64,000 bases of DNA from assembly GCA_964526695.1 (NCBI GenBank), contig CAZGJA010000089.1:52694-116693 (forward strand), given 5' to 3'. Positions 7,275 to 62,266 of the stretch are shown here, one piece after another. A model generated the notes under the pieces. That model ran no database searches, was not told the DNA's origin, and saw only the letters and a list, made by a program, of their open reading frames with translations. The stretch comes from an uncultured Phycisphaeraceae bacterium (GTDB lineage: Bacteria; Planctomycetota; Phycisphaerae; UBA1845). The position numbers and the translations under genes are program-made. Positions within the stretch are counted from its first letter, which is position 1; the number at the start of each line of letters is the position of its first letter.

Positions 7275-7282
7275 GGTGGAAA

Positions 7283-7352
7283 TGGTGAATGGCGAATGGC
7301 GAATGGTGAATGGTGAATGTTGAATGCCGAATGCCGAATGCTGAATGGCGAA
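7283..7352. repeat. degenerate heptanucleotide tandem array (ATGGYGA-type, 10 units)
   Basis: Read directly: atggtga atggcga atggcga atggtga atggtga atgttga atgccga atgccga atgctga atggcga. Lies in the yeaH-spoVR spacer. Confidence 0.9.
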
Positions 7353-7465
7353 TCCAAGTCGGAAGCACAAGAGAGAGGAACAAGACCCCGTGGCGAAAAC
7401 AGCGTAGAGCGGGCTATGCCCGGCCTATGGCTAATAGCCAATAGCCTGCAGCCAGCAGCTTTCTC

Positions 7466-9879: not shown

Positions 9880-11358
9880 TCACTTCCCGCCGATCGCGAA
9901 CAGCGTGTTGCGATTGTTGATATACAGCACGCCGTTGGCCGCCACGGGCGTGGTGTACACGGAGTTGTTCATGTCCATCGTGCCCTGCAACTTAAGCTCC
10001 CTGCCGTGCTGCAGGACGAAGACCTCGCCGCTCTCCGTGCCGAGCAGCACCTTGCCGTCCACGACGTAGGGCGAGCCCCAGATGGCCGCGAAGGTGTCGT
10101 GCGTCCAGAGTTTCTTGCCGGTTTTCGCGTCAATGCAGTGCAGGAAGCCGCTTAAGTCCGCGGCGTAGCACAGTCCGTCCTTCACAGCGCAGGTTGACAT
10201 GGACCGGTGAAAATCCTCGCCGCCGAGGTGCCAGACTTTGCCCGTCGCCGTGATGTCGCCGCGTTTCGTTGCGTCAATGCAATAGAAATGGCCGATGCCT
10301 TCGCCGTGCTCGGGGTCCTGCCCGACGCAGACGAAGACGTGGTCGCCGACGATGACCGGCGTGGCGATGACCTCATTGGCCGTGCCGCGCCCGCCGAGGA
10401 CGTACTTGGCGTCCGGCGGATTGAGGTTGAACTGCCACAACACATCGCCGTTCTTGGGGTCCATGGCGTAGCACCATCCGTTGCCGGCGCCGTAAACGAC
10501 CTGTGGTGCGCCGCCGATGACGCCATACGCGGGCGAAGACCATTGCCCGTGAAAGATCCTGCCGCCGGTGAGGTTCTTGCTCCAGACGACCTTGCCGCTG
10601 TCCTTGTCCACGGCGATGAAGTCCGGCGCGACCGGCTTGGGGATGTTAATGTGCCCCTCGTCCACGCCGTTCGACGTGCCGGCGAAAATGAGCTTGCCGT
10701 CGCTGACCGGCGAGGCCGTGGCGAGATTGTGGGGAAATGCGCCGAGCCCGTCGAACATATCGACGATCCAGATGAAGTCGGCGTCCATCTTGTCCTTGTA
10801 CTTCTCGCCGGTGAAGGGTCCGTCATTCTCGCCGTCCAACATGCCTTCCACGTCGCCACAGACGAGTTCACAGCGGTTGCTGACGTAGTACAGTCGATCG
10901 CCGACCACGCACGGCGAGGAGCAGATGCCCTGCTCAGGCCAGTCGTTCACCTGACCCGTGGGCATCTTGTCATGCGTGGCCTGCCAGAGGAGCTTGCCGT
11001 CGGCTTCATTGAAGCACAGGATCACGCCCTTGTCGCCGGTGATTTCCTTGCGAAACTCGCCGCCGTTGTTGCTGCCGACGTAGATCTTGCCCTTGGAGAC
11101 GACGACGTTGCCATACGTCTGCGAGCCGAGCGGCGCGGACCACTTGATGTTCTTCTTCGTCTTGATGTCCCACTCGCCGGGCAGGCCGGTCTCGTCGGAG
11201 ACCATGTTGCGATCCGGCGAGCCGCCCCACATGGGCCAGTCGCCGCGCTTGGGCGTGGGGGATTGCGCGACGGCGGCGGCCGCGAGCATCGACATCAGCA
11301 TGAGCGCGAGGGTGCAATGGCGAATGGCGAATGGCGAATGGCGAAATGGCTCGCGCAT
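9880..11358 (-). CDS. PQQ-like beta-propeller repeat protein (secreted)
   Basis: Signal-like N-terminus (CTLALMLMSMLAAAAVAQSP) and the motif WPMWGGSPDRN, with repeated propeller blades. The start at 11358 is chosen from the ATG upstream of the signal peptide. Confidence 0.8.
   Translation of the reverse strand: MREPFRHSPFAIRHCTLALMLMSMLAAAAVAQSPTPKRGDWPMWGGSPDRNMVSDETGLPGEWDIKTKKNIKWSAPLGSQTYGNVVVSKGKIYVGSNNGGEFRKEITGDKGVILCFNEADGKLLWQATHDKMPTGQVNDWPEQGICSSPCVVGDRLYYVSNRCELVCGDVEGMLDGENDGPFTGEKYKDKMDADFIWIVDMFDGLGAFPHNLATASPVSDGKLIFAGTSNGVDEGHINIPKPVAPDFIAVDKDSGKVVWSKNLTGGRIFHGQWSSPAYGVIGGAPQVVYGAGNGWCYAMDPKNGDVLWQFNLNPPDAKYVLGGRGTANEVIATPVIVGDHVFVCVGQDPEHGEGIGHFYCIDATKRGDITATGKVWHLGGEDFHRSMSTCAVKDGLCYAADLSGFLHCIDAKTGKKLWTHDTFAAIWGSPYVVDGKVLLGTESGEVFVLQHGRELKLQGTMDMNNSVYTTPVAANGVLYINNRNTLFAIGGK
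11316..11343. repeat. perfect heptanucleotide repeat (AATGGCG x4) in the 5' end of the propeller gene
   Basis: Read directly at 11316-11343. On the minus strand it encodes FRHSPFAIRH, codons 5-14 counted from ATG 11358. Confidence 0.9.
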
Positions 11359-13724: not shown

Positions 13725-13860
13725 GGCTGATTTCCAGTGGGTTTCGACTTGCTTTGAAGCATATCAGCATCTCCTGAATATGCCAGACGATTCATCGCAG
13801 GCTCGCTGAACGGCTCAGCAGGGTTTCCGTCATTGGGGACCGCCACAGACGTCCATGATC

Positions 13861-14218
13861 GGCTTCAGCCGATCGGCTCTTGCCACCGACTTGAGTCGGT
13901 GGAGCTGCGGATCGTTGCCTCGATTCAGCCGGCTTCAGCCGGACTTGCCCAAGCGCTCAAAGCCCGGCTGAAGCCGGCTGGTCAGATTCGCAATCGCCTT
14001 CACCCCCCCGCTGAAGCGGGGGGCAAGAACCGGTCGGCTGAAGCCGACCCAGGAAGCGCGGCTCGACCCTCCAGTTGTTAACGCGCTGTGGCAGAACTCG
14101 AAGCTGGGTCTTGGGACCGTCACCCCCGCGCAGGCGGGGGTCCAGTCCGCCCTGCCAAACTGCTGAATCCTAGCCTCCTCGCAAGCCACAGACTGGATTC
14201 CCGCCTGCGCGGGAATGA
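13861..14218. repeat. cluster of short GC-rich hairpin repeats (GGCTKMAGCC type plus a GTCACCCCCGCGCAGGCGGGGG / GGATTCCCGCCTGCGCGGGAATGAC pair)
   Basis: At least seven palindromic units read directly. No credible ORF. The same units recur at 1-50, 47808-47982 and 54136-54162. Confidence 0.8.
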
Positions 14219-14302
14219 CGCGCGTCGCCGTGCGCCACGAGCTCTTAAGCCAGCGGCACCTTAGGTCGCAGCACGTGTCGCGCATCCCATCGAACACCCT
14301 CT

Positions 14303-17636: not shown

Positions 17637-17689
17637 GGACGCTAAGCGGACACATCGGGTGTCGCCCAGCAGCCGCATCGGGCGGCACG

Positions 17690-18016
17690 CTCTGGCGTAT
17701 CCGCGGTGGGTGGCATGGTCTGCGGGTGGCTTACTCTGCGGGTGGCATGCTCTCGACGTACTCGGCGTGAGCATGCGAACCCCATGTGCGAATGGGTGGC
17801 ATGCTCTGCGGGTGGCATGCTCTCGCCGTACTCGGCGTGAGCATGTGAACCCCCCCAGAACCCCCAGGGCATGCAAACCCTCAGGTGCGGGCCGACTCCT
17901 CGCCCGTGGGTCAGCATGGCTACCCGCTTTGCGTGAAGCCATGCCACCCGGGCACTGGAGCGCCGGGGTGCATCCCACGCTGAGTGGCATGGTCTGGCGC
18001 ACTCGCCAAGCCGTGG
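17690..18016. repeat. cluster of GGGTGGCAYG-type hairpin repeats (GCATGCTCTCG..CGTACTCGGCGTGAGCATG subfamily x2, plus partial units and one canonical unit at 17984-18016)
   Basis: Read directly. Repeated GGGTGGCATG(C/G)TCT motifs at 17708, 17723, 17740, 17794 and 17809. No credible ORF. Confidence 0.8.
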
Positions 18017-19322: not shown

Positions 19323-19413
19323 CCTGCGGGCCGCAGTGACCTTTCCGTGCGCCGGGCATCCAAGTTCAGGAACCGCAAGTGATACGAGCGAATGGCGCGC
19401 CGAGTGGCACGGC

Positions 19414-19448
19414 GGGTGGCACGGTCTGGCGTACTCGCCAGGCCGTGG
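19414..19448 (+). repeat. GGGTGGCACGGTCTGGCGTACTCGCCAGGCCGTGG hairpin unit (solo)
   Basis: Exact 35-nt consensus unit. A 10-bp stem (one G-T pair) with TACT loop. Confidence 0.85.
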
Positions 19449-19917: not shown

Positions 19918-20160
19918 CGAGTTTGGCGTCGGATGTCACCAAGCACGCAAGGTACGTTCCGTCAAAACCGAAACCACCGGTCCCGCGCCCGAGCTGCCAT
20001 TCGGGTGGCATGCCACCCCGCCTCGAGAGCATGCCACCCCGCCGCCGCTTCGATGCCCCCGAGGCCGCAAACCACCCTGCGTTGGGCTATTGAATGAGCT
20101 TGGGTGCGGCCCTTGACCGGAGGTCTTGCCTCCGGTCGTCGGGCGGATCAAGCTTGTCCC

Positions 20161-20493
20161 ATGAAACTGCCGAATGGCGACCGAGCTTTCATCGACCCTC
20201 GGAAGCTGTCCGAGTATTCCCTCAATGCCGACCACGATGAGGGCAAGCACAAGGCGGAGCTGTTCCGAGACTTGCTGGGTTTCACGGTCGATAACATGGA
20301 TCTGCTCATCGAGGCCGTCGCGCGGGCGGCTGCGAGCAACGACGCCGAGGCGGGCAAGAAAGACCGGTACGGCCAACGGTTTCAGCTCGACTTCCTCTGT
20401 CAGGGGCCTGACGGTTCCGCGACCGTCCGCTCCGCGTGGGTCATCCGCCCTGACGAGGATTTCCCCCGGCTGGTCACGTGCTATATACTGTAA
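20161..20493 (+). CDS. DUF6883-like protein
   Basis: MKLPNGDRAFIDPRKLSEYSLNADHDEGKHKAELF ... FPRLVTCY matches my recollection of the DUF6883 pattern. Start chosen at ATG 20161. Confidence 0.6.
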   Translation: MKLPNGDRAFIDPRKLSEYSLNADHDEGKHKAELFRDLLGFTVDNMDLLIEAVARAAASNDAEAGKKDRYGQRFQLDFLCQGPDGSATVRSAWVIRPDEDFPRLVTCYIL

Positions 20494-20504
20494 AGGGTGA
20501 TCCG

Positions 20505-20729
20505 ATGAATCAAACTCGACAGCCCAATCTGTTCGATCTGATCGCGGTTCTCAGCGCCCCGGGCGAGGCCGACGTTCAAACCGGCGACGTCGGAACCGTC
20601 GTCGAAATCCTGCCCCCCGATGCCGTCGAGGTCGAGTTCCTGGATCGAAGCGGTCGAACGCGATGCGTGGCCACGATCGCGCTCACGGATGTGCTCGTGC
20701 TGAACCGTCAACGCACGCCTGTGGGTTGA
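20505..20729 (+). CDS. DUF4926-like small protein
   Basis: 74 aa. FDLIAVL...GDVGTVVEIL.PDAVEVEFLDRSGRT is the SH3-like DUF4926 pattern. Starts 12 nt after the upstream stop. Confidence 0.6.
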   Translation: MNQTRQPNLFDLIAVLSAPGEADVQTGDVGTVVEILPPDAVEVEFLDRSGRTRCVATIALTDVLVLNRQRTPVG

Positions 20730-21382
20730 CGGCAGCGGAAAGCGAATCCCCCAACTCGCGGCGAGAATCTTCGCCGACATCCACGTCTCGGGGGCCGGTG
20801 TGAGTTCAGCCCAGCGTCTTAGCGCATGGGGCGGCTGCGTCGCGCGTACTCCTTAGAACGCGAGTTCGTCGGGGCGTCTCCTTCGCCCCTGCCGGGGCGA
20901 GGGGCAATGGATTCGCGACAACCCCAGGTTCCGCGTCGGGCGGCCGCGTCGCCGCGCCGCTCCACCCGTGGCTACAACCGGCGACCCCTTCGGGGTCAAG
21001 ATCCTCACCGGCGGGAGGAGCAAGTTCTTCACCGTCGCGGTGATACCCAAGTGTCCGGTTTTCACCCCTCACTCCGCCCCGAGGGGGCGAAGGCGTGTAG
21101 CCACGGGCGCAGCGATTGCCGCCACATGCGACCGCAGCGGAACCTGTGGAGTTCGCGGCGCGCATTTTGACGCGGCCCTGAAGGCAGAGATCCCGGCGGG
21201 TCGGGTGCCGCAGAGCTGTCGAGAGAATAGACGGAGGGAGGGTTAGGCGGGGATGGTGGATCGGATCTGGACATGAACCGGTCGTCCATTCGTCACCAGC
21301 AGTTCGACAGGCCAAGCTTGACGACGGGGCTACGACATTGTGCTATTTACCAGCAGTGTGGCTATCATGACGAGGGACAACC

Positions 21383-22084
21383 ATGGGCAAGCGCTGCGTT
21401 TATTGCGGAGTGAAAGGGCGTACTTCCAGTGATCACATTCCCCCGCGTTCTCTTTATTCCCAACCCTATCCGCCAAACTTGATCACGGTTCCCGCTTGCT
21501 CGGCTTGCAACCAGCAAGCCTCCAGGGACGATGAGTATTTCCGCACCGTTATTTCACTGAAAGATTCCACATACTCACATCCTGACGTACAGGCGAATCT
21601 CCCCTCGATCTTCCGGGGACTTCAGAGGCCTGAAAACAAGAATTTCACTCGTTCGTTTCTCAACGGCATCCGCCAATTCAACCTCCGTAGCCCCGGGGGA
21701 ATTCAGTTAGGACACAAGTGGGGCTTTGACGTGGACCTGAGAAGGCTCGATCGCGTAGCCGAGCGGATAGTCAGAGGACTCTTCTTCCACGAGACGCGCA
21801 GGGCACTGCAATACTCCGCCGGGGTGAAGGCATGGTCGGAGGATGGTCTGCGGGACATCCCCATTCCTATTCTTCGCGAATACCAGGAAACAGTCATACG
21901 GCCGCTCTTGGTGTCTCCATCAACATCCATAGGTAACGGGACATTCGAATATCGGTTTCAAGTCTGTGAGGACGAGCCCAACGCCTCGGCTTGGTTGTTG
22001 ACAATGTACCAAGACGTTCGGTTTCTTTGCTTGACGGTACCCAAAGGCCAGACTGCTAATGATTCCTTGTTGCGGAGCGTGTGA
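21383..22084 (+). CDS. HNH-motif (beta-beta-alpha-Me-like) protein with an uncharacterised C-terminal domain
   Basis: N-terminus CVYCG...SSDHIPPRSL...PPNLITVPACSACNQ (CxxC..DH..N..CxxCN). Located in low-GC DNA (48% in the line at 21421). Confidence 0.6.
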   Translation: MGKRCVYCGVKGRTSSDHIPPRSLYSQPYPPNLITVPACSACNQQASRDDEYFRTVISLKDSTYSHPDVQANLPSIFRGLQRPENKNFTRSFLNGIRQFNLRSPGGIQLGHKWGFDVDLRRLDRVAERIVRGLFFHETRRALQYSAGVKAWSEDGLRDIPIPILREYQETVIRPLLVSPSTSIGNGTFEYRFQVCEDEPNASAWLLTMYQDVRFLCLTVPKGQTANDSLLRSV

Positions 22085-22237
22085 TTAGACGCCGCATCCC
22101 AGTCGCAGGTGGATGGTGGATTCCAAGACCAGCGAAGTGGCCGACCGGCCAAGAGCGCCTGGGGATCGTTCAATGGTGTGCCCTTGTATAGCGGGGCACG
22201 CCTCTCGAAACGATGCCTGGTTGCAGACCCATGAGGG

Positions 22238-22867
22238 TCACGGCATGAAGTAAATGCTCTTGATCAACATGGTTGCCAGTGACAAGAGGTCGGCGGCCTC
22301 GTCGTCCGTAGCCATTCGGATTTCATGATTCTCCATGTTTCCAGACTTCCTGATCCTGTCCAGAATACCATGTTGCGGCTTACCAACGACTCCTGCGGAC
22401 TTAAGTTGTTCACAATATTGCTCGAATCTCAATCCCTCTTTTGCTCCTTGCTCAACAGCAATGTGCATAAGTAGCTTTCGGAGCATCAAGACTGTACAAC
22501 TCGCCGCCCCCGTGCTGAAAGCCGATCTTGCCTCGTCGTACAACGAGACCACTAACGAGATTTCCGGAGATTTTCCTCTTGCGTCGAAACGCTCACCAGT
22601 GAGAGGCCTAGGAAGCTGTTTGCCGTTGACAAACGTTGTAGCGACGCTACACGCCGGACAGACTCTAATGTCTCGCGAATGGCTCGCTCCCAATAGTGAA
22701 CCGCCGCTCTGGCGTAGTCCAAGCTCCGAGGCGACGACGACGCCACAATAGCCACACTTGAACTTTTCGTGGTCGGGCGCAGGATGCCAATGTAGTTTTT
22801 CTAGCAATCGCGCAAACTCGTGATTGTCCAACGTGCTGTCCTCCCAATCCGTCATTTCTTCCCTCAA
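22238..22867 (-). CDS. zinc-ribbon plus DUF4145 domain protein
   Basis: CGYCG...CPACS zinc-ribbon-like N-terminus. The C-terminus (AASCTVLMLRKLLMHIAVEQG...LDRIRKSGNMENHE) fits the DUF4145 helical pattern. Low GC (45% in the line at 22321). Confidence 0.65.
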   Translation of the reverse strand: MREEMTDWEDSTLDNHEFARLLEKLHWHPAPDHEKFKCGYCGVVVASELGLRQSGGSLLGASHSRDIRVCPACSVATTFVNGKQLPRPLTGERFDARGKSPEISLVVSLYDEARSAFSTGAASCTVLMLRKLLMHIAVEQGAKEGLRFEQYCEQLKSAGVVGKPQHGILDRIRKSGNMENHEIRMATDDEAADLLSLATMLIKSIYFMP

Positions 22868-22913
22868 GCGAGTGTGGTTCGCATGATGATCTCAAATTGC
22901 TTCCATATCCCGT

Positions 22914-22997
22914 TCACCTCGCCAACCGCCGCACCACCGTCTGCAGGATACCCCCGTTGCGGAGAGGGTCAACGTCGGCGTTCGGGTCCACTCGCCA
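22914..22997 (-). pseudogene. diverged remnant of an aconitase 3' end
   Basis: The minus strand translates to [27 protein letters not shown]-stop, against the acnA C-terminus [27 protein letters not shown]-stop. The terminal 46 nt are 38/46 identical by hand alignment. Confidence 0.55.
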
Positions 22998-23044
22998 ACT
23001 TCCCCTCCGCGCTTGCAAGCGACGCCTCGCGTATTGTTGGAGCA

Positions 23045-23722
23045 TCACGGTTGCGTAGCGCGGACGAAGGGGAACCCATCATAGGCAACGACGAAGGGAT
23101 GCGCCTGGCGCGGCAAGCCCTCGCGATCGGGGTTTTGCTCGATGTACTCCACAACGCGCCGGGCGTCTTCGGGGTTGTACAGGAACACCTTGTACGGTCG
23201 TGCCGACCAGACGGGGTGCTGCGCGTGGACATCCGCGTGGGAACGAACGGCGTCGGCGGTGGCGGCGGCGAACGAGTTCCACATCTTCAGCGCGTCGTCG
23301 CGATGACGGCGGATGCACAGGTGGACGTGATTGCGCAGGACCGCGCACGCCCTCACGGTGTAGCGGTTTTCCGCAGTGAGCTTCCCACAGGCATCCGCAA
23401 CGGCTTGCCTCTTCGCGGCATCGAACCAGAGCGTGGGGAAATCGAGGCGCGGTTCCGCGCGGCGGTAGAACTGCTTCAACGCCGCGCGCGGCGGTTGCAC
23501 GCTTCGGCGACCGTAATGGAGTTCCCCCAGGTCGCTGAGTTTTTTCTCCCGGATATCCCGCGAACCGCTCCCGCGCGGGTCGTTGGGCAACCAGTGCCCG
23601 TACGCGTGGAGGATGAGATGATGACCGATGACGACGCGGCGGTGCGTGCGCGGTGAGGGGTGGCGCGCGCTCTCGCGAAGAGGCAAGCCACTTGGGTCGT
23701 TCTCCGGAATCGACGAAGTCAT
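23045..23722 (-). CDS. REP-associated tyrosine transposase-like protein (RAYT; IS200/IS605 Y1 transposase fold)
   Basis: 225 aa. HLILHAYGHWLPNDPRGS, an HUH-type motif (NHVHLCI) and a catalytic-Tyr motif (VVEYIEQNP). Starts 19 nt downstream of the acnA stop. Confidence 0.8.
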   Translation of the reverse strand: MTSSIPENDPSGLPLRESARHPSPRTHRRVVIGHHLILHAYGHWLPNDPRGSGSRDIREKKLSDLGELHYGRRSVQPPRAALKQFYRRAEPRLDFPTLWFDAAKRQAVADACGKLTAENRYTVRACAVLRNHVHLCIRRHRDDALKMWNSFAAATADAVRSHADVHAQHPVWSARPYKVFLYNPEDARRVVEYIEQNPDREGLPRQAHPFVVAYDGFPFVRATQP

Positions 23723-23741
23723 GGGACTACGGAACTCCCCC

Positions 23742-26663
23742 CTACTTCGCCAACTGCCTAAGCACTGTCTGGAGGATGCCCCCGTTGCGGTAGTAATCCA
23801 CCTCCACCGCCGTGTCCACGCGGCAGATTGCGGTGAACGTTTTCGATTTCCCCGTCTGCGGGTTTGTGGCGACGACCTTTAGCTCCTGGCGCGGTTTGAG
23901 GGTGTCGCCCAGGTCGGGGAGGTCGAAGACTTCGTGGCCGGTGAGGCCGAGGGTCTCGCGCGTCTCGCCCTGCTTGTATTGCAACGGGAGGACGCCCATG
24001 CCGACGAGGTTGCTGCGGTGGATGCGCTCGTAGCTTTCGGCGAGCACGAAGCGGACGCCGAGGAGGAACGTGCCCTTGGCGGCCCAGTCTCGGGAGGAGC
24101 CGGTGCCGTATTCCTTGCCCGCAAGGATGACGGTGGGCGTCCCGGATTCCTTGTATTGCATGGCGGCGTCGAAGATGGGTAGTTCGTCGCTCCGCGACGA
24201 ATGCTCGCAGCGGAGCTGCGAACTACCCGTATCGCAGCGGAGCTGCGAACTACCCTGCGGAGCAGCGCCGAGGAAGATCGTCACGCCGCCTTCGGTGCCC
24301 GGGGCGAGGAGGTTCTTGATGCGCGTGTTGGCGAACGTGCCGCGGGTCATGACGCGGTCATTGCCGCGGCGGGCGCCGTAGCTGTTGAAGTCCGACGGCT
24401 GCACGCCCTTGGAGATCAGGTACTTGCCCGCGGGCGAGTCCTTCTTGATCGAGCCGGCCGGCGAGATGTGATCGGTCGTGACCGAGTCGCCGAGCATGAC
24501 GAGGACGCGGGCGCCGCGGATGGGCTGGATGGGGGATGGGTCGCGTGAGAGGGAGGCGATTTCCGAACGCGGAAGCCCGCCCCCTGCCCCCTCCAGCGGG
24601 GAGGAGTGAAAAGCGGGCGACGACTCCCCGTTGAAGAACGGCGGGTTCTGGATGTAGGTGTTGTCGTCGTCCCAGCGGTAGGTGGGGTCGCTGCCCGCGG
24701 TGATCCTCCGCCACGGCTCGCTGCCTTGGAAGACGTCGGCGTACTGCTCGCGGAACTTGTCGGGGGAGATGCAGGAGGCCAGCGTGTCGCTGATTTCGCG
24801 CGAGCCGGGCCAGAGGTCGCGCAGGAACACGTCGCGCCCGTCGCTGCCTTTGCCCAGCGGCTGCGTGGCGAGGTCAATGTCCACCGTCCCCGCCAGCGCA
24901 TACGCGACGACCAGCGGCGGCGAGGCCAGGTAGTTGGCTTTCACGTGCGAGTGGATGCGGCCTTCGAAGTTGCGGTTCCCGGAGAGGACGGCCGCGGCGA
25001 CGACGTCATGTTCGGTGATGGCCTTCTCGACGGACTCGGGCAGCGGACCGCTGTTGCCGATGCAGGTCGTGCATCCGTAGCCGACGGTGTGGAAGCCGAG
25101 CTTCTCCAGGTACACCGTCAGGCCAGCGTCATTCAGATAGCGCGTCACGACCGTCGAGCCAGGCGCGAGGCTTGTCTTCACGTGCGCGGGGACGGACAGG
25201 CCTCGCTTGACGGCGTTGCGCGCGAGGATCCCCGCGCCGACCATGACCGACGGGTTGGACGTGTTGGTGCAGCTTGTTATTGCGGCGATGACGACGCTGC
25301 CGTCGCGGAGTTTCGACCGGCGGCCGCTCACCTCCACTTCGACTTCGGCGGGCGAGTCGAGGAGGGCCGTGCCGCCGGATGAAGCCGCGGTTGAAGCGGA
25401 TGCGGAAGCGGCTGGCGCAGGTGACGCGCTCGTGGCACTGCGGCCGTAGTTCTTCACCAGCGCCGTGTGCCAGGCGCGTTTCATGTTCGAGAGCGCGACG
25501 CGGTCCTGCGGGCGTCGCGGACCGGCGAGTGACGGCTCGACGGTCGAGAGGTCCAGATCGAGCGAGTCGGTAAAGAGCGGGTCCGGCGCGGCGTCGGTGC
25601 GGAACAGCCCCTGCTCCTTGCAGTAGCGCTCGACGAGGTCGATCAGCTCGTCCGGGCGCGCGGTGAGGCGCAGGTAGCGAAGCGTCTCGTCATCGACGGG
25701 GAAGAAGCCGACGGTCGCACCGTATTCCGGGGCCATATTGGCGATGGTGGCGCGATCCGCCAGCGAGAGCTTGCCTAACCCCTTGCCGTAGAACTCGACG
25801 AACTGCCCGACGACGCCTTTCGCGCGGAGCATCTCGGTCACGCGAAGCACAAGGTCCGTTGCCGTCGCGCCCTCGGGCAGATCGCCGTGCAACCGGAAGC
25901 CCACCACGTCGGGCATGAGCATGTAATTCGGTTGCCCGAGCATCGTGGCCTCGGCTTCGATCCCGCCCACGCCCCAGCCGACCACGCCCAGCCCGTTGAT
26001 CATCGTCGTGTGGCTGTCCGTGCCGACCAAGCTGTCGGGCATGGCGACCACCTTCCCGTCGATCTTCCGCGCGATGACGACTTGCGCGAGGTATTCGAGG
26101 TTGACCTGGTGCACGATGCCCGTGGCCGGCGGGACGACGCGGAAGTTAGCGAAGGCGTTCTGGCCCCAGCGCAGGAATTCGTAGCGCTGCCGGTTGCGCG
26201 AGAACTCGAGATCGGCATTGATGCCGAGGGCGGCGGCGCTGCCGAAGGCGTCCACCTGAACGGAGTGGTCGATGACAAGGTCGATCGGGATGAGCGGGTT
26301 GATCTTCCGCGGATCGCCGCCGAGGCACTGCATGGCGTCGCGCATCGCGGCCAGATCAACGACGCAGGGCACGCCAGTGAAGTCCTGCATGAGGACGCGC
26401 GCGGGCTTGAAGGGGATGTCTTCGCGTACAGCGGCCTTGGGCGCCCACGAGGCCAGCGCCTTCACGTCCTTCTCTGTGACGGAGAATCCGTCACAACTCC
26501 GCAGCGCGCTTTCCAGCAGCACTTTCATCGAGAAAGGGAGACGCGAAACGTTCAGGAAGCCGGCTCGCTCCAGCTTTTGCAGGCTGACGTAAGAAACGTC
26601 GCCTTTGCGGGACGAAAGCTGGGACCAGACGCCGAAGGGATCCGTTTGTGCAGCGGTATTCAT
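23742..26663 (-). CDS. acnA: aconitate hydratase A
   Basis: 973 aa with family blocks throughout ([62 protein letters not shown]). Carries two repeat-derived in-frame insertions. Confidence 0.95.
24177..24255. repeat. GGGTAGTTCG..CGAACTACCC hairpin-repeat units (three) inside the acnA reading frame
   Basis: gggtagttcgtcgctccgcgacgaa / tgctcgcagcggagctgcgaactaccc / gtatcgcagcggagctgcgaactaccc. Encodes [24 protein letters not shown]. Confidence 0.85.
24530..24625. repeat. CCCCTGCCCCCTCC...GGGGAGG-type repeat unit inside the acnA reading frame
   Basis: Encodes [31 protein letters not shown]. The same DNA family occurs as a tandem pair at 43124-43202. Confidence 0.75.
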
Positions 26664-27613: not shown

Positions 27614-28768
27614 TCAAAAAACACGATCCCCTCGGCACAACATCTCGTAGTAGCTCTGATATCGCTGCGCCATGGCGCCGAGCGAGTACGCCTCGGCCTG
27701 ATGTCTTGCGTTGCGCGCCAGGGCCTGGCGCAGCGGTTCGTCGCTGAGGAACCGGATCATCGCGGTCGCCAGTTCGGCGGGGGCAGCGGGGGCGACGAGG
27801 AGACCTGCGGGAGCGGCAAACGGAAGCGCGTGCGCGTCTTGCAGGAGCAGCGGATTGTCGCCGACGCGAGTGGCGACGATGGCCAGCCCGGCGGCCATCG
27901 CTTCGAGCACCGCGTGGCTCATGCCTTCTGAACGGCTGCTGCAAACGTAGGCGTCGCTGCTGCCCAGCAGCGTCGGAACATCCTCGCGCCGGCCGGTGAT
28001 GGCGACGCGGCGCTGCCAGCCGTGGTGTCGAACGCACCGCTCGATCTCCTCGCGCAGGGGTCCGTCGCCGACGAGCAGCAGGCGCGCGTTCGGGTTGAAA
28101 GCCAGCGTCCGGCCAAACGCCTCCAGCAACGAACCGTGATCCTTGACCTCGGTCAGCGAAGCGACGCAGGCGAAGACGAAATCCTCATCGGCGAAGCCCA
28201 GCTCAGCGCGATGCCGTCGCCGCAGGGCCGGGTCGAGCGGCGCGAAGCGCGCGAGGTCCACGCCGTTGGGCAGCACGTCAATTCGATCGGCCGGCGCGCG
28301 GGCTTCCGACATCAGCTTGTCGCGCCCGGCGAATGAAACGCAGCACAGCCGCGCGCCGAGACGAAGCCCCCAGCGCACGCGGCGGAGTTGCGAAGCGGCG
28401 AACGGCCCGTCGTGCTCCAGACCGTGAAACCCGAGCACCAGCCGGCAGTGCGGCATCAGCGCTTTGGCCAGCATCGCGTCCGCCCAGGCGCCCAGCCCCC
28501 GTGCGTGAAGCACGCGCACACGGCGGGCGCGGCAATGCGCGGCGAGCGTCCACCCCAGCCTGGCGGCGCGCCGGCGAGTGTCAAACGCGCGGCACGCCAC
28601 ATGGGCCGGAAGCGCCCGCGCCCCTTCACCCGCCCGGCGAAGCGTGACCACCTCATGCCCGGCGCGCTCCGACTGCATCGCGCCAAGCAGCCGGACGAGA
28701 CCCCGCTCCGTCCCGCCGCCTTCGAGCGAGTCCAGCAGATGGGCCACGCGCAGGGTCGGCTCAGGCAT
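27614..28768 (-). CDS. glycosyltransferase family 4 (GT-B, RfaG-like)
   Basis: 384 aa. N-terminal GGTERG-type motif. C-terminal block SRSEGMSHAVLEAMAAGLAIVATRVG typical of GT4. Confidence 0.85.
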   Translation of the reverse strand: MPEPTLRVAHLLDSLEGGGTERGLVRLLGAMQSERAGHEVVTLRRAGEGARALPAHVACRAFDTRRRAARLGWTLAAHCRARRVRVLHARGLGAWADAMLAKALMPHCRLVLGFHGLEHDGPFAASQLRRVRWGLRLGARLCCVSFAGRDKLMSEARAPADRIDVLPNGVDLARFAPLDPALRRRHRAELGFADEDFVFACVASLTEVKDHGSLLEAFGRTLAFNPNARLLLVGDGPLREEIERCVRHHGWQRRVAITGRREDVPTLLGSSDAYVCSSRSEGMSHAVLEAMAAGLAIVATRVGDNPLLLQDAHALPFAAPAGLLVAPAAPAELATAMIRFLSDEPLRQALARNARHQAEAYSLGAMAQRYQSYYEMLCRGDRVF

Positions 28769-30110
28769 ACGCGGGCCTTCCCGTCAGAGGCGAGCCGTGC
28801 TCCAACTCGGGCGGAGGCATGGACATGGCGGCGAGCTGCGCCTGCGCCAGCTCGTTCTCGATCGTCCGCTGGATGCAGAGGGGCAGCGTCAGCACCCACC
28901 AGAAGGACTCCGTGTAAAACCGCTCGGTGAAAAACCCGGCGACCACGTAGGTCACCATTGACACGAACGCGCCGTACCCGATGTAGCGAATCTCCAGGAA
29001 ACCGGGGATCCCCTCGGCCTCACGCATGGCGCGATGGAGCCGCAGGAAACTGCTCGTGAGCATGGTGAGGAAGATGATGCCGGCGGGGATGCCCAGCTCG
29101 GCGATGCAGTTGAGGAACGTGTTGTGCGCGGCGCGCCGTTCGTGGTAATAGGCGCGGGTCATCTGCTCGAAGTTCCCCGCGCCCACGCCCAGTGGGTAGT
29201 CGCGGATCATCCTCAACCCCACCTGCCAGACGTCCAGTCGCGTCACGATGGCCGTGTCGGTGGCGCGCGTCACCGGGTCCGTGATGGTCAACATGCGCTG
29301 CCAGAACCCCGGGTCGGTCAGGGTCGAGCCGAACACGCCGCAGATGACCAGCAGCACGATGATGCGATAGCGCCGCTGCTTCGGCGCCACCAGCGCCGCC
29401 ACGGCCGCACCGGCGGCAAGCGCGACGATCGCCGATCGCGTGCGGCAGAGAATCATGGCGTTGAAACCGAAGGCGCCGGCGGCCAGGGCGAGGATTCGGC
29501 CATACCATGATTTGGCGATCAACAGCGCGGCGCCGACGAGCGGCAGCACGGCGCCGAGATGCACCGCGAATCCCGACGAAAACTGAAAGTCCGGACCGCC
29601 GATGTCGTTGAGTCGACCGAGGTGGAAGCGGCTGGGACCGGCGATGAACGCCTCGCGTCCCAGGTAGAGCGTGCCGATGACGATGGTCCAGAGGAAGCGA
29701 CGCAGGGTCTCCCGCGTCGTCAGCAGCCGCCCCATGATGAGCACGAAGAGCAGCATCTTCCAGAACTTGTCCAGACGAGCCGCGGACTCGCCCGTGTAGC
29801 CGACGCCGGTAAAGATGCCCAGGAACCCGACGAGCACGAGCAGGAAGACGCCCAGCTCCCAGAGTCGACCGGACAGCGCCGCGCGAGAGGGCGTCCGCCG
29901 GCCGACGAGCATCCCGACCAACATGCACGCGGCCGCGTACATCGAGAAGCGGATTCCCATGTCGCGCAGCGGAATGCCCCACCAGGCGCTCTGGGGGTCC
30001 ACCTGATAAACGAGGACGTAGTTGAGCACGCCGAAGGAGGGATCCATCAGCGAACCCAGGCACAGGGCCGAGTAGAGGATCGCGAACAGGATGGTCTTGA
30101 TCGGCCACAT
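28761..30110 (-). CDS. O-antigen ligase (Wzy_C) family membrane protein
   Basis: 449 aa, polytopic. Conserved loop ...GVGAGNFEQMTRAYYHERRAAHNTFLNCIAELGI typical of the WaaL/Wzy_C domain. 8-nt overlap with the GT4 gene. Confidence 0.8.
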   Translation of the reverse strand: MWPIKTILFAILYSALCLGSLMDPSFGVLNYVLVYQVDPQSAWWGIPLRDMGIRFSMYAAACMLVGMLVGRRTPSRAALSGRLWELGVFLLVLVGFLGIFTGVGYTGESAARLDKFWKMLLFVLIMGRLLTTRETLRRFLWTIVIGTLYLGREAFIAGPSRFHLGRLNDIGGPDFQFSSGFAVHLGAVLPLVGAALLIAKSWYGRILALAAGAFGFNAMILCRTRSAIVALAAGAAVAALVAPKQRRYRIIVLLVICGVFGSTLTDPGFWQRMLTITDPVTRATDTAIVTRLDVWQVGLRMIRDYPLGVGAGNFEQMTRAYYHERRAAHNTFLNCIAELGIPAGIIFLTMLTSSFLRLHRAMREAEGIPGFLEIRYIGYGAFVSMVTYVVAGFFTERFYTESFWWVLTLPLCIQRTIENELAQAQLAAMSMPPPELEHGSPLTGRPAYA

Positions 30111-30261: not shown

Positions 30262-30364
30262 GAGTGGCACGGGTCCGCAGCAGCGGACCCGTGTGGTGCA
30301 TGAACGTGAGTGAGTAGGCAGCTCACTTCCGACGGCTTGGCGAGTACGCCAGACCGTGCCACCC
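30262..30364 (-). repeat. REPIN/MITE-like doublet, about 100 bp (GGGTGGCACGG...CCGTGCCACT termini)
   Basis: Contains both hairpin 1 (…GGCGAGTACGCCAGACCGTGCCACCC) and hairpin 2 (CACGGGTCCGCAGCAGCGGACCCGTG). Sits in the waaL-hldE divergent spacer. Confidence 0.8.
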
Positions 30365-30709
30365 AGCCGCCTACGCGGGAATGGCGGTGTACGACAGACC
30401 CTGCCGACCCTGCCGCCAGACGGTGCCTCCCGCGCCCGGAGCCGCAATGAGACCGCCCGGGGCGCGCCGGCGAGAGGTTGGACGTTTCCTTGCCCGCTGG
30501 GGCCGGGCGTTTTAGCATCCACGCCATCGCGGGTTGGCGTCAGGTACCACTGACTGGCAGCCCGCTTGGGCGGCCATGAGGTTGCGCGGTTGCATGGCGA
30601 GACATAACGTCTTGCAAAATATCATGTTAAACTCCTGCCGCTCGGAACTCCCCGTTGCGGCAGGCGCGGGTTTCTCGTCCGTCGGGCTTTGCCCCGGGAC
30701 AGGGTGCGC

Positions 30710-32200
30710 ATGAGCCAGGAAATAGCCCATTGGGTCCGCGCCTGTGCGGGTCGGCGCGTGTTGCTGCTCGGAGATCTGATTCTGGATCGGTACGTCTATG
30801 GCGATGCCGAGCGGGTCAGTCCGGAGGCGCCCGTGCCGGTTTTGCGCGTCGTAGAGCGACGTGACGCCGTGGGCGGGGCGGCGAACGTGGGGGCTTGCCT
30901 GCGCGCGCTGGGGTGCGAAGTCGCGTGCTGTGGCGTGATTGGCGAGGACCGCAACGGTCGCCTGCTGCGGCAGATGCTCGACGAGCTGGGCGTGGATGCG
31001 TCCTCGCTGGTGACGTTGATGGACCGCCCCACGACGACCAAGACGCGCATGGTCGGGCTGGCGCAGCATCGGCATCGCCAGCAGCTTCTGCGCGTCGACG
31101 AGGAAGACGCCGGCGCGCTGACCGACGCCGACGCGCATCGCGTGCTGGCCGCCTGCGCCAATCGCATCAAGGACGTGGACGTGGTCTGCATCGAGGACTA
31201 CGACAAGGGACTGGTGACCGACAACCTCGTCCGCAACATCACCGCGCAGGCGCGGCGGCTGGGCAAGCCCGTGCTGGTCGATCCGGCCAAGCTGCGGGAT
31301 TACGCGAGGTACCATGGGGCGACGCTGATCACGCCGAACCGTGAAGAGCTGTCCCGTGCGGTCGGTCGGAAACTGGAGTCGATTGACGCGGTGGGCGAGG
31401 CCTCGCGCGAGTTGATCGAGCGGCACGGTTTCGACGCCGTCGTGGCGACGGTGGATCGCGACGGCGCCGTGCTGGTGGAGAAAGGCAAGCCCGCGATGCA
31501 CGTGCCGACGCGCCCCCGCGCCGTGTATGACAACACCGGCGCGGGCGACGCAGTGCTGGCGATGCTCGCCGCGGCCGTGGCGGCGGGCGCGGGGCTGCCC
31601 GAAGCGGTGGCGCTGGCCAACATCGCCGGCGGGCTGGAGGTCGAGAAGTTCGGCTGCGTGCCGATCACGGCCGAAGAAGTGCTGGCGGACCTTCGACTTT
31701 CCGGTCGGCGCGGATCGGGCAAGATCCGCAGCGCGGACGACCTCGTGGCCGAGCTGACGCTGCGGCGCGATCGTGGGGAAACCGTCGCGTTCACCAACGG
31801 CTGCTTCGATATTCTCCACGCGGGGCACGTCGATTTTCTGGAGCGTTGCCGCGAGCTGGCGTCGGTCCTCGTCGTCGGCGTCAACACCGATGCCTCGGTG
31901 CGCTCGCTGGGCAAGGGCGATGGCGACCGGCCCATCAACCGCTTCGAGGACCGCTGTGCCGTGCTCGCGGGGCTGGCCTCCGTGGATTATGTCGTCGGCT
32001 TCAACGACGCCGATCCGGAAAGACTGGTCCGCCGCGTCCGCCCGGACGTACTGGTGAAGGGCGCGGACTGGGCGCAGAAGGGCGTGGTGGGGCGAGAGTA
32101 CGTCGAGTCGTACGGCGGGAAGGTGACGCTGCTGCCGCTGGTGGACGGGCTGAGCACGACGCGGCTGGTGGAGCGGATTCGCGGAGGAGTTGCGGTTTGA
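30710..32200 (+). CDS. hldE: bifunctional D-beta-D-heptose 7-phosphate kinase / heptose 1-phosphate adenylyltransferase
   Basis: N-terminal PfkB-type kinase (VLLLGDLILDRYVYG) and C-terminal cytidylyltransferase (AFTNGCFDILHAGHVDFL). Confidence 0.9.
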   Translation: MSQEIAHWVRACAGRRVLLLGDLILDRYVYGDAERVSPEAPVPVLRVVERRDAVGGAANVGACLRALGCEVACCGVIGEDRNGRLLRQMLDELGVDASSLVTLMDRPTTTKTRMVGLAQHRHRQQLLRVDEEDAGALTDADAHRVLAACANRIKDVDVVCIEDYDKGLVTDNLVRNITAQARRLGKPVLVDPAKLRDYARYHGATLITPNREELSRAVGRKLESIDAVGEASRELIERHGFDAVVATVDRDGAVLVEKGKPAMHVPTRPRAVYDNTGAGDAVLAMLAAAVAAGAGLPEAVALANIAGGLEVEKFGCVPITAEEVLADLRLSGRRGSGKIRSADDLVAELTLRRDRGETVAFTNGCFDILHAGHVDFLERCRELASVLVVGVNTDASVRSLGKGDGDRPINRFEDRCAVLAGLASVDYVVGFNDADPERLVRRVRPDVLVKGADWAQKGVVGREYVESYGGKVTLLPLVDGLSTTRLVERIRGGVAV

Positions 32201-32809: not shown

Positions 32810-33733
32810 ATGAACATCCTCATCACCGGATCGAGCGGACAGATCGGCACGAACCTCGCCCTGGCGCTGCTCGAGGGCGGGCACCGCGTGCTGGGCATCG
32901 ACAAACGCCCCAACACCTGGACGCCGCGCGTCGAGACCCTCCTGCTTGATCTGACCGCCGACGGGGAAGGGCGCTGGCCGAAGGGCCCGTTTGACGCCGT
33001 CGTCCACCTGGCGGCCAACGCCAAGGTGTTCGAGCTGGTCGAGCATCCGCGCCGGGCGCTGGACAACGTGCTGATGTTGTTCAACGTGCTGGATTACTGC
33101 CGGCGGGAGCGCTGCCCGATCATCTTCGGCAGCTCGCGCGAGGTGTACGGCGACATCCACCAGCACGTCACCGAGGAGGACTCCGCGGATTTCGTCGTGG
33201 CGGAAAGCCCGTACAGCGCGAGCAAGATTTCGGGCGAGGCCTTCATCTACTCGTATGCGCAATGCTACGAGCTGCCGTACCTGGTGTTTCGCTTCAGCAA
33301 CGTGTACGGGCGATACGACAACGACCTGGCGCGGATGGAGCGCGTGATCCCGCTGTTTCTTAAGCGCATCGCCGCGGGCGAGCCGATCGTGGTGTTCGGG
33401 CGGGAGAAGGTGTTCGACTTCACCTACATCGACGACTGCGTGGACGGCATTCTCGCGGGGATCGAGGCGCTGCGTGCCGGGCGCGTTTCGATGCAGACGA
33501 TCAACCTCGCGTGCGGGCAGGGGTCCACGCTGGTGGACCTCGTGAACATCCTGGCGCTGGCGCTGGGCAAGCCGGCGTTGGTCACTTATGAGCCGGCCCG
33601 CGTCGGCGAGGTGACGCGGTATGTGGCCGACATCAGCAAGGCGCGCGATCTGCTGGGCTACGCGCCAAAGTTTCCGCTGACGGCGGGGCTGCCGCGCTAC
33701 GTGGAATGGTCGCGGCAGACGGGCGCGATCTGA
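32810..33733 (+). CDS. NAD-dependent epimerase/dehydratase (extended SDR)
   Basis: MNILITGSSGQIGTNL Rossmann motif and a YSASK catalytic motif. Confidence 0.85.
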   Translation: MNILITGSSGQIGTNLALALLEGGHRVLGIDKRPNTWTPRVETLLLDLTADGEGRWPKGPFDAVVHLAANAKVFELVEHPRRALDNVLMLFNVLDYCRRERCPIIFGSSREVYGDIHQHVTEEDSADFVVAESPYSASKISGEAFIYSYAQCYELPYLVFRFSNVYGRYDNDLARMERVIPLFLKRIAAGEPIVVFGREKVFDFTYIDDCVDGILAGIEALRAGRVSMQTINLACGQGSTLVDLVNILALALGKPALVTYEPARVGEVTRYVADISKARDLLGYAPKFPLTAGLPRYVEWSRQTGAI

Positions 33734-33809: not shown

Positions 33810-33908
33810 GGGTGGCACGGTCTGGCGTACTCGCCAGGCCGTGGCGGATGAGGAATAGACGTTCATGCGCGCACGGCACGGGTCCGCTGCTGCGGACCCA
33901 TGCCACCC
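33810..33908 (+). repeat. REPIN/MITE-like doublet, 99 bp
   Basis: gggtggcacggtctggcgtactcgccaggccgtgg - 32-nt spacer - cacgggtccgctgctgcggacccatgccaccc. The ends are inverted repeats. Confidence 0.85.
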
Positions 33909-42349: not shown

Positions 42350-42440
42350 GGGTGGCACGGTCTGGCGTACTCGCCAGGCCGTGGGGAGTGAGCAACCCAA
42401 GCGAGTCCCGGTAGCACGGCTCCGCAGCAGCGGACCCGTG
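42350..42440 (+). repeat. REPIN/MITE-like doublet (variant; hairpin 2 loop inverted, right terminus degenerate)
   Basis: gggtggcacggtctggcgtactcgccaggccgtgg ... cacggctccgcagcagcggacccgtg. Confidence 0.75.
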
Positions 42441-45068: not shown

Positions 45069-45172
45069 GGGTGGCACGGTCTGGCGTACTCGCCAGGCCG
45101 TGGCGGATGAGGATGGTGTCGAACGTCGCTTCGCCGACGCCACGGGTCCGCTGCTGCCGACCCGCGCCACCC
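45069..45172 (+). repeat. REPIN/MITE-like doublet, 104 bp
   Basis: gggtggcacggtctggcgtactcgccaggccgtggcggatgagg ... cacgggtccgctgctgccgacccgcgccaccc. Confidence 0.85.
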
Positions 45173-47807: not shown

Positions 47808-47982
47808 CCGTCACCCCCGCGCCGACGGGGGCAGTCACTCTCGCACAGGCGGGAGCCGTCACCCCCGCGCAGGCGGCGGCCCAGGGCGCACCGCCAGTCC
47901 GCTGGATTCCCGCCTGCGCGGGAAGGGCACGGGTAGTTCGTCGCTCCGCGACGAGACTGGATTCCCGCCTGCGCGAGAATGA
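47808..47982. repeat. cluster of GTCACCCCCGCGC..., GGATTCCCGCCTGCGCGGGAA and GGGTAGTTCGTCGCTCCGCGACGA hairpin units
   Basis: Read directly. Two units of each of the first two types and one of the third, between the metalloprotease-like gene and the HAD gene. Confidence 0.8.
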
Positions 47983-48010
47983 CAGGCTTCGCCTTGCACC
48001 ACGGGATGTC

Positions 48011-48586
48011 ATGCGTCGATCCGCCATCATCTTTGATCTGGACGGCACGATCACGAGGCCCGTGCTGGACTTCGACCTGATGCGCCGGGAAATCGGCATC
48101 GCTTCCGGGCCGATTCTCGAAGCGCTGGATCGGATGACGCCGGGCGACCGCGCGCAGGCCGAGCAGGTGCTGGAGCGGCACGAGCGCGAAGCGGCGGAGA
48201 ACTCGGTCCTGTACGAAGGAGCGGTCGAGGTCGTGGCGTGGCTGCGCGATCGCGGCTGCCCCGTGGCGATTCTGACGCGCAATGCGCGGCGCTGGGTGGA
48301 CGTCGTGCTCACGAAGCATGCCATCGAGGTGGATGCCATCCGCACGCGCGAGGACGGGGCGATCAAGCCGTCGGCCGCTCCCGTGCTCGCCCTCTGCGCG
48401 CAGCTCGGCGCCGCGCCCGCGGAGAGCTGGATGATCGGCGACTACCTTTTCGACCTTCAGTCCGGTCGCCAGGCCGGGACGCGCACGGTGCTGATGATCG
48501 GCGACAGCCCGGCGCCGGCGTTCGCGGGGGAGGCGGATCATGTGATTCGCAACTTGCGGGAGCTGCTGGAACTGCTTCGGCGATGA
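48011..48586 (+). CDS. HAD family hydrolase
   Basis: IIFDLDGTIT motif I, ILTRN motif II, and a C-terminal GDYLFDLQSGRQAG motif. Start trimmed to ATG 48011. Confidence 0.85.
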   Translation: MRRSAIIFDLDGTITRPVLDFDLMRREIGIASGPILEALDRMTPGDRAQAEQVLERHEREAAENSVLYEGAVEVVAWLRDRGCPVAILTRNARRWVDVVLTKHAIEVDAIRTREDGAIKPSAAPVLALCAQLGAAPAESWMIGDYLFDLQSGRQAGTRTVLMIGDSPAPAFAGEADHVIRNLRELLELLRR

Positions 48587-53949: not shown

Positions 53950-54162
53950 AACTCCCCTCCCTCGCAGGGAGGGGCTGGGGGAGCGTCACGATACCCGAAT
54001 CAGGCCGGGCCGTGTTGAGTCCCGCTTCTTCGACTCCGCCTCTTCGACTCTACCTCACGTGGTCGGGTGGCACGGGTCCGCAGCAGCGGACCCGTGTTGC
54101 CTCCGGGCAAACTCCCGCTTCCGATACTCCACGGCCTGTTCCCGCCTGCGCGGGAATGACGG
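53950..54162. repeat. three different hairpin-repeat types in the mlaF-mlaD spacer
   Basis: ctcccctccctcgcagggaggggctggggga; gggtggcacgggtccgcagcagcggacccgtg (54065-54096); ctgttcccgcctgcgcgggaatgacgg (54136-54162). Confidence 0.8.
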
Positions 54163-54210
54163 AATACGCCATACCGTGCCACCCGTGCGCCGTTCGCCGC
54201 GCCTGCATGT

Positions 54211-56907: not shown

Positions 56908-57004
56908 GGGTGGCACGGTCTGGCGTACTCGCCAGGCCGTGGGAGTATGGGAATCAGCGTGCTCCACTTGCCGCACGGGTCCGCTGCTGCGGATCCGTGC
57001 CACT
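56908..57004 (+). repeat. REPIN/MITE-like doublet, 97 bp
   Basis: gggtggcacggtctggcgtactcgccaggccgtggg ... cacgggtccgctgctgcggatccgtgccact. Confidence 0.85.
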
Positions 57005-57059
57005 CGACGCGAACGCGACCCGGCAGAGGTGGCGCCGTGACGCGCTCCGCTTGAACGGA

Positions 57060-61410: not shown

Positions 61411-61451
61411 GGGTGGCATGCTCTCGCGGTACTCCGCGTGAGCATGTGCCC
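61411..61451 (+). repeat. GGGTGGCATGCTCTCG..GTACTC..CGTGAGCATG hairpin unit (subfamily)
   Basis: gggtggcatgctctcgcggtactccgcgtgagcatgtgccc. Same subfamily as 17740-17780 and 17809-17850. Confidence 0.8.
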
Positions 61452-61951: not shown

Positions 61952-62124
61952 GGTGCATGATCCGCGAATCGCTCGACGTCGGTATCGACGCGCCGGTGAG
62001 CGCAGGCCCGATGGCATGAGCATAACAGGTTCGCGGGCGCTGTCGCTTATAATCCCGAGCGTTTTGTGGATGGGTGAGCGGAGCCGGCCAGCCCGGCGCG
62101 GGGCGGCGAAGCGATCCTTGATCG

Positions 62125-62266
62125 CCACGGCCTGGCGAGTACGCCAGATCGTGCCACCCAGCCGAGCGTCTTGAGCATTGGCGAGCGGACCCGGCTGGAC
62201 TGGCGCGAGCCGGCGGTGCAGTCCTTGATCGCCACGGCCTGGCGAGTACGCCAGACCGTGCCACCC
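62125..62266 (-). repeat. two direct copies of the 35-nt GGGTGGCACGGTCTGGCGTACTCGCCAGGCCGTGG unit, 107 bp apart, with shared flank TCCTTGATCG
   Basis: Units at 62125-62159 and 62232-62266 (reverse orientation). An extra GTGCCACCC half-site at 62271-62279. Confidence 0.85.

Follow-up and report, generated by a model that had tools for sequence, protein, structure and literature searches.

The doublet at positions 33810-33908 is real and is a member of a family of small hairpin repeats that carry a tag and are specific to one lineage. The stretch of DNA that we analysed (64 kb, hereafter the window) contains 19 full hairpin units, which fall into three related types (A, B and C), together with at least seven partial heads. 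The hairpins recur within the window and in related genomes, are restricted to one lineage, lie between genes and share a conserved tag and stem base. We consider them to be probably REP-class elements of the GTAG-tagged superfamily that are arranged in BIME-like intergenic mosaics.

The element at 33810-33908 lies on the plus strand and is a tail-to-tail heterodimer of one type A and one type B hairpin. Its sequence opens with GGGTGG, and the stem of hairpin A (33810-33844) has 12 bp, among them a fixed T.G pair, with TACT as the loop. A spacer of 32 nt separates this hairpin from hairpin B (33877-33908, minus strand), which has 11 bp and a loop of 4 nt, and the element ends in CCACCC. The heterodimer scores 108 bits against a covariance model of the doublet, folds at -76 kcal/mol (z -7.3) and starts 77 nt past the stop codon of an epimerase gene (32810-33733). 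An earlier note on this DNA had described a doublet of about 100 bp at this place, with inverted GGGTGGCACGG/CCGTGCCACCC termini and the appearance of two inverted REP-type units. The sequence matches this description, and the units are indeed of REP type and often occur as inverted doublets. The TACT loop of the first hairpin was also described correctly, but its stem has 12 bp including the fixed T.G pair, not 10 bp.

Type A units have the form GGGTGG-CACGGTCTGGCG-TACT-CGCCAGGCCGTG and occur nine times in the window, in addition to one disrupted copy. Type B (GGGTGG-CACGGGTCCGC-AGCA-GCGGACCCGTG) is present in seven copies and type C (GGGTGG-CATGCTCTCGCCG-TACT-CGGCGTGAGCATG) in three. All are 32-36 nt long, with GC-rich stems of 11-13 bp and 4-nt loops. 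Across the window and the Phycisphaerales loci described below, nearly all of 45 units are headed by the unpaired GGGTGG tag, while the unit at 42409 carries GGTAG. The arms of A and B have only the tag and the first five stem pairs in common. The GGGTGG tag appears to be GTGG in place of GTAG, carried by at least three stem variants (A, B and C, plus a variant A').

Units were enumerated by an ungapped mismatch scan, a fuzzy regular expression having missed known copies. A generic screen for GGT[AG]G followed by a hairpin was dropped as too noisy (58 matches versus about 20 in shuffles). The commonest combination is the A/B tail-to-tail heterodimer. One such heterodimer, at 30262-30364 (minus strand, 93.6 bits in the covariance model), lies between the divergent genes of a Wzy_C ligase (28761-30110, minus) and an HldE-like protein (30689-32200, plus). 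Another, at 45069-45172 (plus, 95.4 bits), is preceded by the partial head ATAGCACGGCT and sits between the divergent genes of an M29 peptidase (minus) and an FG-GAP protein (plus, from about 45248), and a third, at 56908-57005 (plus, 98.7 bits), is found about 55 nt upstream of the start of a GNAT gene (about 57060). At 54065-54184 (minus, 69.4 bits), hairpin A (54137-54184, minus) is interrupted: a 23-nt CGTC-tagged hairpin (CGTCATTCCCGCGCAGGCGGGAA) is nested in its 3' arm at 54137-54160. The solo hairpin 2 that had been proposed at 54065-54096 is really one arm of this doublet. The variant copy at 42350-42440 (plus, 61.6 bits) is present as described, except that hairpin A is followed by a hairpin B in direct rather than inverted orientation and with a canonical GGTAG head.

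The remaining copies are more heterogeneous. Repeat finding and the mismatch scan delineated a mosaic cluster at 17680-18016 (plus) with arrays of period 16 and period 70. It consists of a degenerate A unit at 17680, 16-nt partial units at 17708, 17724 and 17794, type C units at 17740-17775 and 17810-17845, a variant A unit at 17982-18016 and, on the minus strand, another GGGTGG-headed hairpin at 17909-17949. At 19402-19448 (plus), the partial head GAGTGGCACGGC directly precedes a full hairpin A (19414-19448). A head-to-head "double-foot" palindrome, GGGTGGCA/TGCCACCC, with nothing inside occupies 20003-20018, beside the 5' half of a type C unit on the minus strand (within 19992-20040). A solo type C unit at 61411-61446 (plus; fold z -4.8) lies between convergent genes. 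Upstream of a YHS lipoprotein gene (start 62444), a minus-strand array at 62055-62279 comprises a tandem duplication of a 107-nt unit (62055-62268), both copies of which end in hairpin A (62125-62159 and 62232-62266, both minus), and a partial head (62269-62279). The repeat finding and mismatch scan also recovered a degenerate solo hairpin B with five mismatches at 3083-3114 (plus). Together, these two approaches retrieved every entry of the earlier copy list, which was nevertheless incomplete: it had overlooked the degenerate hairpin B, the partial heads at 17708, 17724, 17794, 19402 and 62269, and the palindrome.

The repeats are far more frequent than base composition predicts. Allowing at most one mismatch, GGGTGGCACGG occurs 19 times in the window versus 2.71 expected, and none of 100 dinucleotide shuffles of the window reached this number; an explanation by composition, which had been named as a possible refutation, thus failed in the window. 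When one genome per species was scanned, the 35-mer of hairpin A gave exact matches at no fewer than 13 loci. The MAG "Phycisphaerales bacterium SJ659" accounts for at least 11 of these, spread over at least 10 contigs, and among the matches listed there are also a second Phycisphaerae MAG (locus L007) and a 2.4-kb contig binned as Chloroflexi. The latter (L004, JACRBR010000331.1) shares both its A/A' composite and a conserved 25-nt 5' extension with L007 and probably comes from a Phycisphaerae genome and was mis-binned. Types A, B and C as well as the A/B doublet recur in the Phycisphaerales 35-mer loci (98 kb), which represent independent copies because the window does not overlap them.

As a negative control, we used 80 unrelated loci (975 kb) from a metagenome scan with the HldE-like protein, which yielded no orthologous loci but only relatives that were at most 58-67% identical. 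We counted 21 occurrences of the motif GGGTGGCAYG in the window and 27 in the Phycisphaerales loci (98 kb), versus one in the 975 kb of control; it is absent from the 205 kb of control loci with a GC content of at least 0.62. A search with the covariance model, which the earlier note had suggested, was performed over 1.14 Mb (window, Phycisphaerales loci and control loci). Its matches proved lineage-restricted, since those with E <= 0.1 fell only in the window and the Phycisphaerales loci and the best control match had an E value of 0.36. Rfam gave no match at the gathering threshold over the 64 kb (best sub-threshold match, 15 bits, E > 1), and the repeats had no match in a plasmid collection or in viral contig collections. 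With the Rfam and plasmid searches empty, the copies are neither a known ncRNA family nor part of a longer annotated element. Moreover, two independent short-read assemblies of the window's organism stop at 33833, 24 nt into hairpin A, the kind of break that multi-copy repeats cause in assemblies.

Predicted folding energies of the doublets range from -64 to -76 kcal/mol (z -6 to -8 versus shuffles); the folds are stable on both strands and take the form of a multi-branch junction. For pair counts across types, 22 distinct units were anchored by hand at the stem base, because the gaps that MAFFT placed were asymmetric across types and no single structure was carried. Canonical pairs amounted to 91.4% in these 22 units, versus 66% when arms were swapped between types. 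Virtually no variation was seen in the GGGTGG tag or in pairs 1, 2 and 4, while stem positions 3 and 5-9 show two or three different canonical pairs each. In variant A', found in loci L004, L007, L002 and L010, five upper-stem pairs are replaced on both sides, and the tag, stem base, T.G pair and loop are kept. The stems of the subfamilies thus differ yet stay paired; these differences could also reflect separate palindromic origins. No covariation was seen within eight A/B doublets, in which most pairs are invariant and the changes in hairpin B merely break pairs, so that structural support comes from the comparison of subfamilies only. Hairpin A is 98.6% identical among these eight doublets, in agreement with the earlier statement that it is nearly invariant, and hairpin B is 90.8% identical.

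We next consider what is copied. The earlier note had treated the doublet as a REPIN- or MITE-like unit. A REPIN proper would be a doublet of about 100 bp that, spacer included, folds as one hairpin and is copied by a single-copy RAYT. In line with this explanation, nine A/B doublets share a constant spacer length of 30-37 nt, the inverted termini could close an 11-bp helix according to the fold prediction, and spacer identity in eight A/B doublets slightly exceeds that of shuffled spacers (59.4% versus 54.2%, z 4.2), the 8 nt adjoining hairpin A accounting for most of this excess. Furthermore, two loci share a composite of hairpins A and G with 92% identity over 106 nt including the spacer, which implies that some composites were copied whole. 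However, the single long hairpin does not form because the arms of the doublet differ in the upper stem, the spacers are only 59% identical versus 98.6% for hairpin A, and changes in the closing helix are one-sided only. Hairpin A also occurs alone, in direct repeats such as the 107-nt tandem duplication, next to A' at a spacing of 14 nt, and with CGTC-tagged hairpins or partial heads as partners, and no RAYT flanked by doublets was found in 162 kb. A REPIN in the strict sense is therefore unlikely. What stood of the earlier proposal are the inverted units of REP type, while the doublet as the unit found no support, its arms being different, its spacers near random and hairpin A swapping partners.

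Our comparisons instead suggest that the spreading module is the hairpin and not the doublet, as in BIMEs and in the tail-to-tail heterodimers of PMC3733652. The units appear to join in changing partnerships and orientations and as partial copies, giving BIME-like mosaics. Such mosaics are seen here as A/B, A/A' and A/G dimers and as the clusters at 17.7-18.0 and 62.1-62.3 kb; partners are modular, and one insertion is nested. The A/A' composite is found at non-orthologous sites in two MAGs (L004 and L007). Moreover, 7 of the 45 units have a partial head (GTRGCAYGG) within 20 nt upstream, versus 0.5% of background windows. A check for target preference at the borders of the 45 units, also suggested earlier, yielded two preferences only, G at -3 (30/45) and C or T at -1 (35/45).

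The genomic location of the units bears on a second explanation. Because the window has a GC content of 66%, genes were called by third-position GC and then checked with Pfam. Three stop-to-stop ORFs overlap units, but their real starts, placed by signal peptides or the first conserved domain, follow the units at a distance of 55-165 nt. In the window, every A, B and C unit is thus intergenic, and the earlier claim holds for them. They lie between divergent genes at 30.3, 45.1 and 62.2 kb, between co-directional genes at 17.7-20.0, 33.8, 42.4 and 54.1 kb, and between convergent genes at 61.4 kb. The hairpins might be host cis elements under selection that are not currently mobile, namely terminators, stabilisers of mRNA 3' ends or protein-binding sites such as have been reported for the BIMEs of E. 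coli. This would account for hairpins that are far more conserved than the intervening spacers, for the identity of hairpin A across different MAGs and for folds that are stable on both strands. On the other hand, 3 of about 12 sites are located between divergent genes, where transcripts do not end, and the terminator scan detected no T-tract after the hairpins; none of 14 terminator-like sites at 29.8-46 kb coincides with a doublet. We rejected terminator function as the main explanation because of the sites in divergent promoters and the absent T-tracts. Partial heads, a nested insertion and tandem duplications would also be unexpected of a selected site, and a role for the host is in any case compatible with a mobile origin. 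We regard host cis elements as quite unlikely to be the explanation.

IS200/IS605 elements are associated with the Y1 enzyme family. It is very improbable that the repeats are deletion derivatives of such elements (PATE-type MITEs) in which the two hairpins stem from the subterminal regions, left and right, of a parent IS, since the different hairpin at each end and the implication of the Y1 family are outweighed by the absence of a tnpA/tnpB parent with these ends from the window and loci, by tags that are mutually inverted and not on one strand, by single hairpins dispersed alone and by plasmid and viral collections without a match.

The assignment to GTAG-tagged REPs is consistent with what has been described for this superfamily. 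These REPs are found in more than 80 species of eight phyla, including the PVC superphylum (R. baltica, O. terrae); their tags can be mutated to GTGG, as in O. terrae GTAG-20, and several families can occur per genome (PMC3733652). They form head-to-head and tail-to-tail homo- and heterodimers as well as hybrid dimers, and the spacers of tail-to-tail dimers are variable as a rule (PMC3733652). The repeats studied here share with the superfamily (Opitutus terrae GTAG-20, Rhodopirellula baltica) the 32-36-nt unit with an unpaired GT[AG]G tag and a GC-rich palindrome, the GTGG variant of the tag, several families in one genome, interfamily hybrid dimers and head-out (tail-to-tail) heterodimers with variable spacers of 20-100 bp. 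Occasional in-frame intragenic insertions are likewise shared, here in an aconitase gene, and every testable feature of the superfamily is present. In contrast to the described families, the stem sequences are specific to the Phycisphaerales lineage, the stems are, with 11-13 bp, near the upper limit of the range, 6-9 bp being the length in most described families, and the cognate RAYT was not located in 162 kb.

The E. coli BIMEs, mosaics of the REP variants Y and Z (Ton-Hoang et al. 2012, PMC3333891), are similar in that related but non-identical REP variants alternate in inverted orientation and make up mosaic clusters between genes, in which units can be partial or reiterated in tandem. 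They differ in that their linkers are conserved motifs, whereas spacer length alone is conserved here, and they have IHF, DNA gyrase and Pol I as protein partners and a REP-flanked tnpA-REP (PMC3333891). Like the Pseudomonas REPIN/RAYT system (Bertels and Rainey 2011, PMC3116915), our repeats include inverted REP doublets that are dispersed, intergenic and lineage-specific, in a genome with a RAYT-class gene. However, the arms of the Pseudomonas REPINs are near-identical and form one long hairpin, their spacer is part of the copied unit, and the RAYT-like gene in our window is unflanked by repeats; here the arms differ and the A/B spacers are nearly random. REPs enriched in GTGG and genomes with REPs but without tnpA-REP are known, and an inverted dimer that loses its centre by deletion has been put forward as the possible source of "double-foot" REPs (Quentin et al. 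2018, PMC6006769). The palindrome at 20003-20018 resembles the double-foot REPs of TnpA-Y1 subclass 2.4 (PMC6006769) in its 5' GT[AG]G tag with the complement at the 3' end, but it is a single minimal palindrome, and a REP-flanked subclass 2.4 gene was not found. Each feature of the repeats seen here has a precedent, and because such selfish or semi-domesticated intergenic DNA is already well described in other bacteria, they are a new example rather than a new kind and leave the current understanding of REPs unchanged.

From the anatomy of the units and established knowledge of REPs (PMC3333891, PMC3479197, PMC8266576), we infer mobilisation by a RAYT, and with it the acting enzyme, a single-stranded DNA mechanism and current activity. 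The folded single-stranded hairpin with its 5' tag would be the recognition site of a HUH-Y1 enzyme of the RAYT/TnpA-REP type. Such an enzyme would nick beside the tag and copy or re-join units, preferentially near existing units, and this preference would give rise to dimers, nested insertions and reiterated heads.

The window does encode a RAYT-like HUH-Y1 protein, which the earlier note had mentioned, but a linkage to the hairpins was not borne out. The gene (23045-23722, minus) specifies the motifs NHVH and YIEQNP. Its product scores 22.2 bits against Pfam Y1_Tnp, below the cut-off of 23, and 43.8 bits (E 2e-11) against NCBIfam REP_Tyr_transpos, below the cut-off of 80, and aligns weakly to E. 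coli TnpA-REP 4er8. In 15 homologs, neither HUH nor Y-I-x-x-N-P shows any variation, and HUH together with a Y---NP tyrosine motif is the signature of class 2 TnpA-Y1 (Quentin et al. 2018, PMC6006769). The family, which has an YGHWLPNDPRGSGS N-terminus and was named RayT by JGI, is widespread in Planctomycetota at 55-65% identity. The gene sits 3 kb from the nearest hairpin unit, with no GGGTGG hairpin within 3 kb, and its homologs occupy tight, non-syntenic contexts without GGGTGG hairpins. No other HUH-Y1 ORF was found in the window or in the 98 kb of repeat-bearing loci (162 kb), nor was any Y1 gene flanked by GGGTGG hairpins within these 162 kb. The lone Y1 gene is a candidate for the cognate enzyme, but because it is unflanked by hairpins, the cognate enzyme was not located.

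The RAYT-like gene contains an exact 15-nt inverted repeat of its own, GCTTGCCTCTTCGCG, at 23403-23417 (plus) and 23674-23688 (minus), which is unrelated to the GGGTGG hairpins and is also present in L016, L018 and L019/L020. Depending on the homolog, one arm at the 5' end of the gene falls in the 5'-UTR or in an "LPLR" N-terminal extension; the other arm lies about 260 nt into the coding sequence and encodes AAKRQA. Nucleotide-level conservation of the two arms extends to homologs with only 55-65% protein identity, and L016 shows a matching compensatory change in both. This pattern suggests a selected long-range pairing between the 5' end and the coding sequence, which may serve RNA regulation or be a single-stranded DNA site of the enzyme. 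This conserved inverted repeat is the most interesting loose end, more so than the doublet. The gene is bracketed by an 82-nt direct repeat (71% identity; 22916-22997 and 23744-23825), one copy of which constitutes the last ~27 codons of the aconitase gene, and the adjacent stretch of lower GC content (0.60), in an island at about 20100-23740, encodes a DUF6883 protein, an HNH-like protein and a DUF4145 protein. The RAYT-like gene appears to have arrived with an insertion into the 3' end of the aconitase gene that duplicated the end of that gene. One could speculate that the GGGTGG hairpins are serviced in trans by this unflanked, planctomycete-wide family, whose gene would be controlled by its own hairpin. 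We consider this improbable; if true, it would describe a REP system with enzyme and repeats unlinked and would extend the REPtron concept beyond Proteobacteria.

Several other repeats were noted in the window. The aconitase gene (23742-26663, minus) harbors three GTAG-headed hairpin units (GGGTAGTTCG.CGCTCCGCG.CGA.) in frame at 24178-24255. This insert of 78 nt (26 codons) lies in the C-terminal domain, where the Pfam match spans 152 residues over 128 profile positions, and represents the type of intragenic REP insertion that has been reported in O. terrae and R. conorii. CGTC-tagged hairpins (CGTCATTCCCGCGCAGGCGGGAAT), found at 14195-14219, 47959-47983 and 54137-54160, constitute a second REP superfamily and are also present in L001, L006, L008-L010 and L012; those within 14094-14250 and 47856-48014 belong to a longer repeat of about 150 nt. 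Just downstream of the YHS-domain lipoprotein gene, tandem 32-33-nt units at 63166-63288, found also at 47932-47955, each form a GGT[AG][GA]-headed hairpin of the canonical GTAG REP family. Another GTGG-headed family, composed of (C/G)GGTGGCAAGAACCG and the hairpin GTCGGCTGAAGCCGAC, occurs at 12-59, 13841-13888 (minus) and 14018-14065 as well as in L005 and L008. Tandems of the heptanucleotide AATGGCG at 7281-7353 (10.4 copies) and 11316-11350 (4.9 copies) sit at two gene borders 4 kb apart, and a 33-nt tandem repeat at 63415-63521 (3.2 copies) has the internal palindrome CCCTCCCTGAAAGGGAGGG.

Our data reveal a dense, multi-family REP/BIME population in the Phycisphaerae, a class known almost only from metagenomes, and lend further weight to the view that tagged REPs are of ancient origin and occur widely outside the Proteobacteria. 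The repeats also explain contig ends of this lineage, because they break short-read assemblies. Finally, near-invariant hairpins set against randomised spacers make these repeats a clean system for the question whether selection, homogenisation or continuing transposition lets REPs persist.
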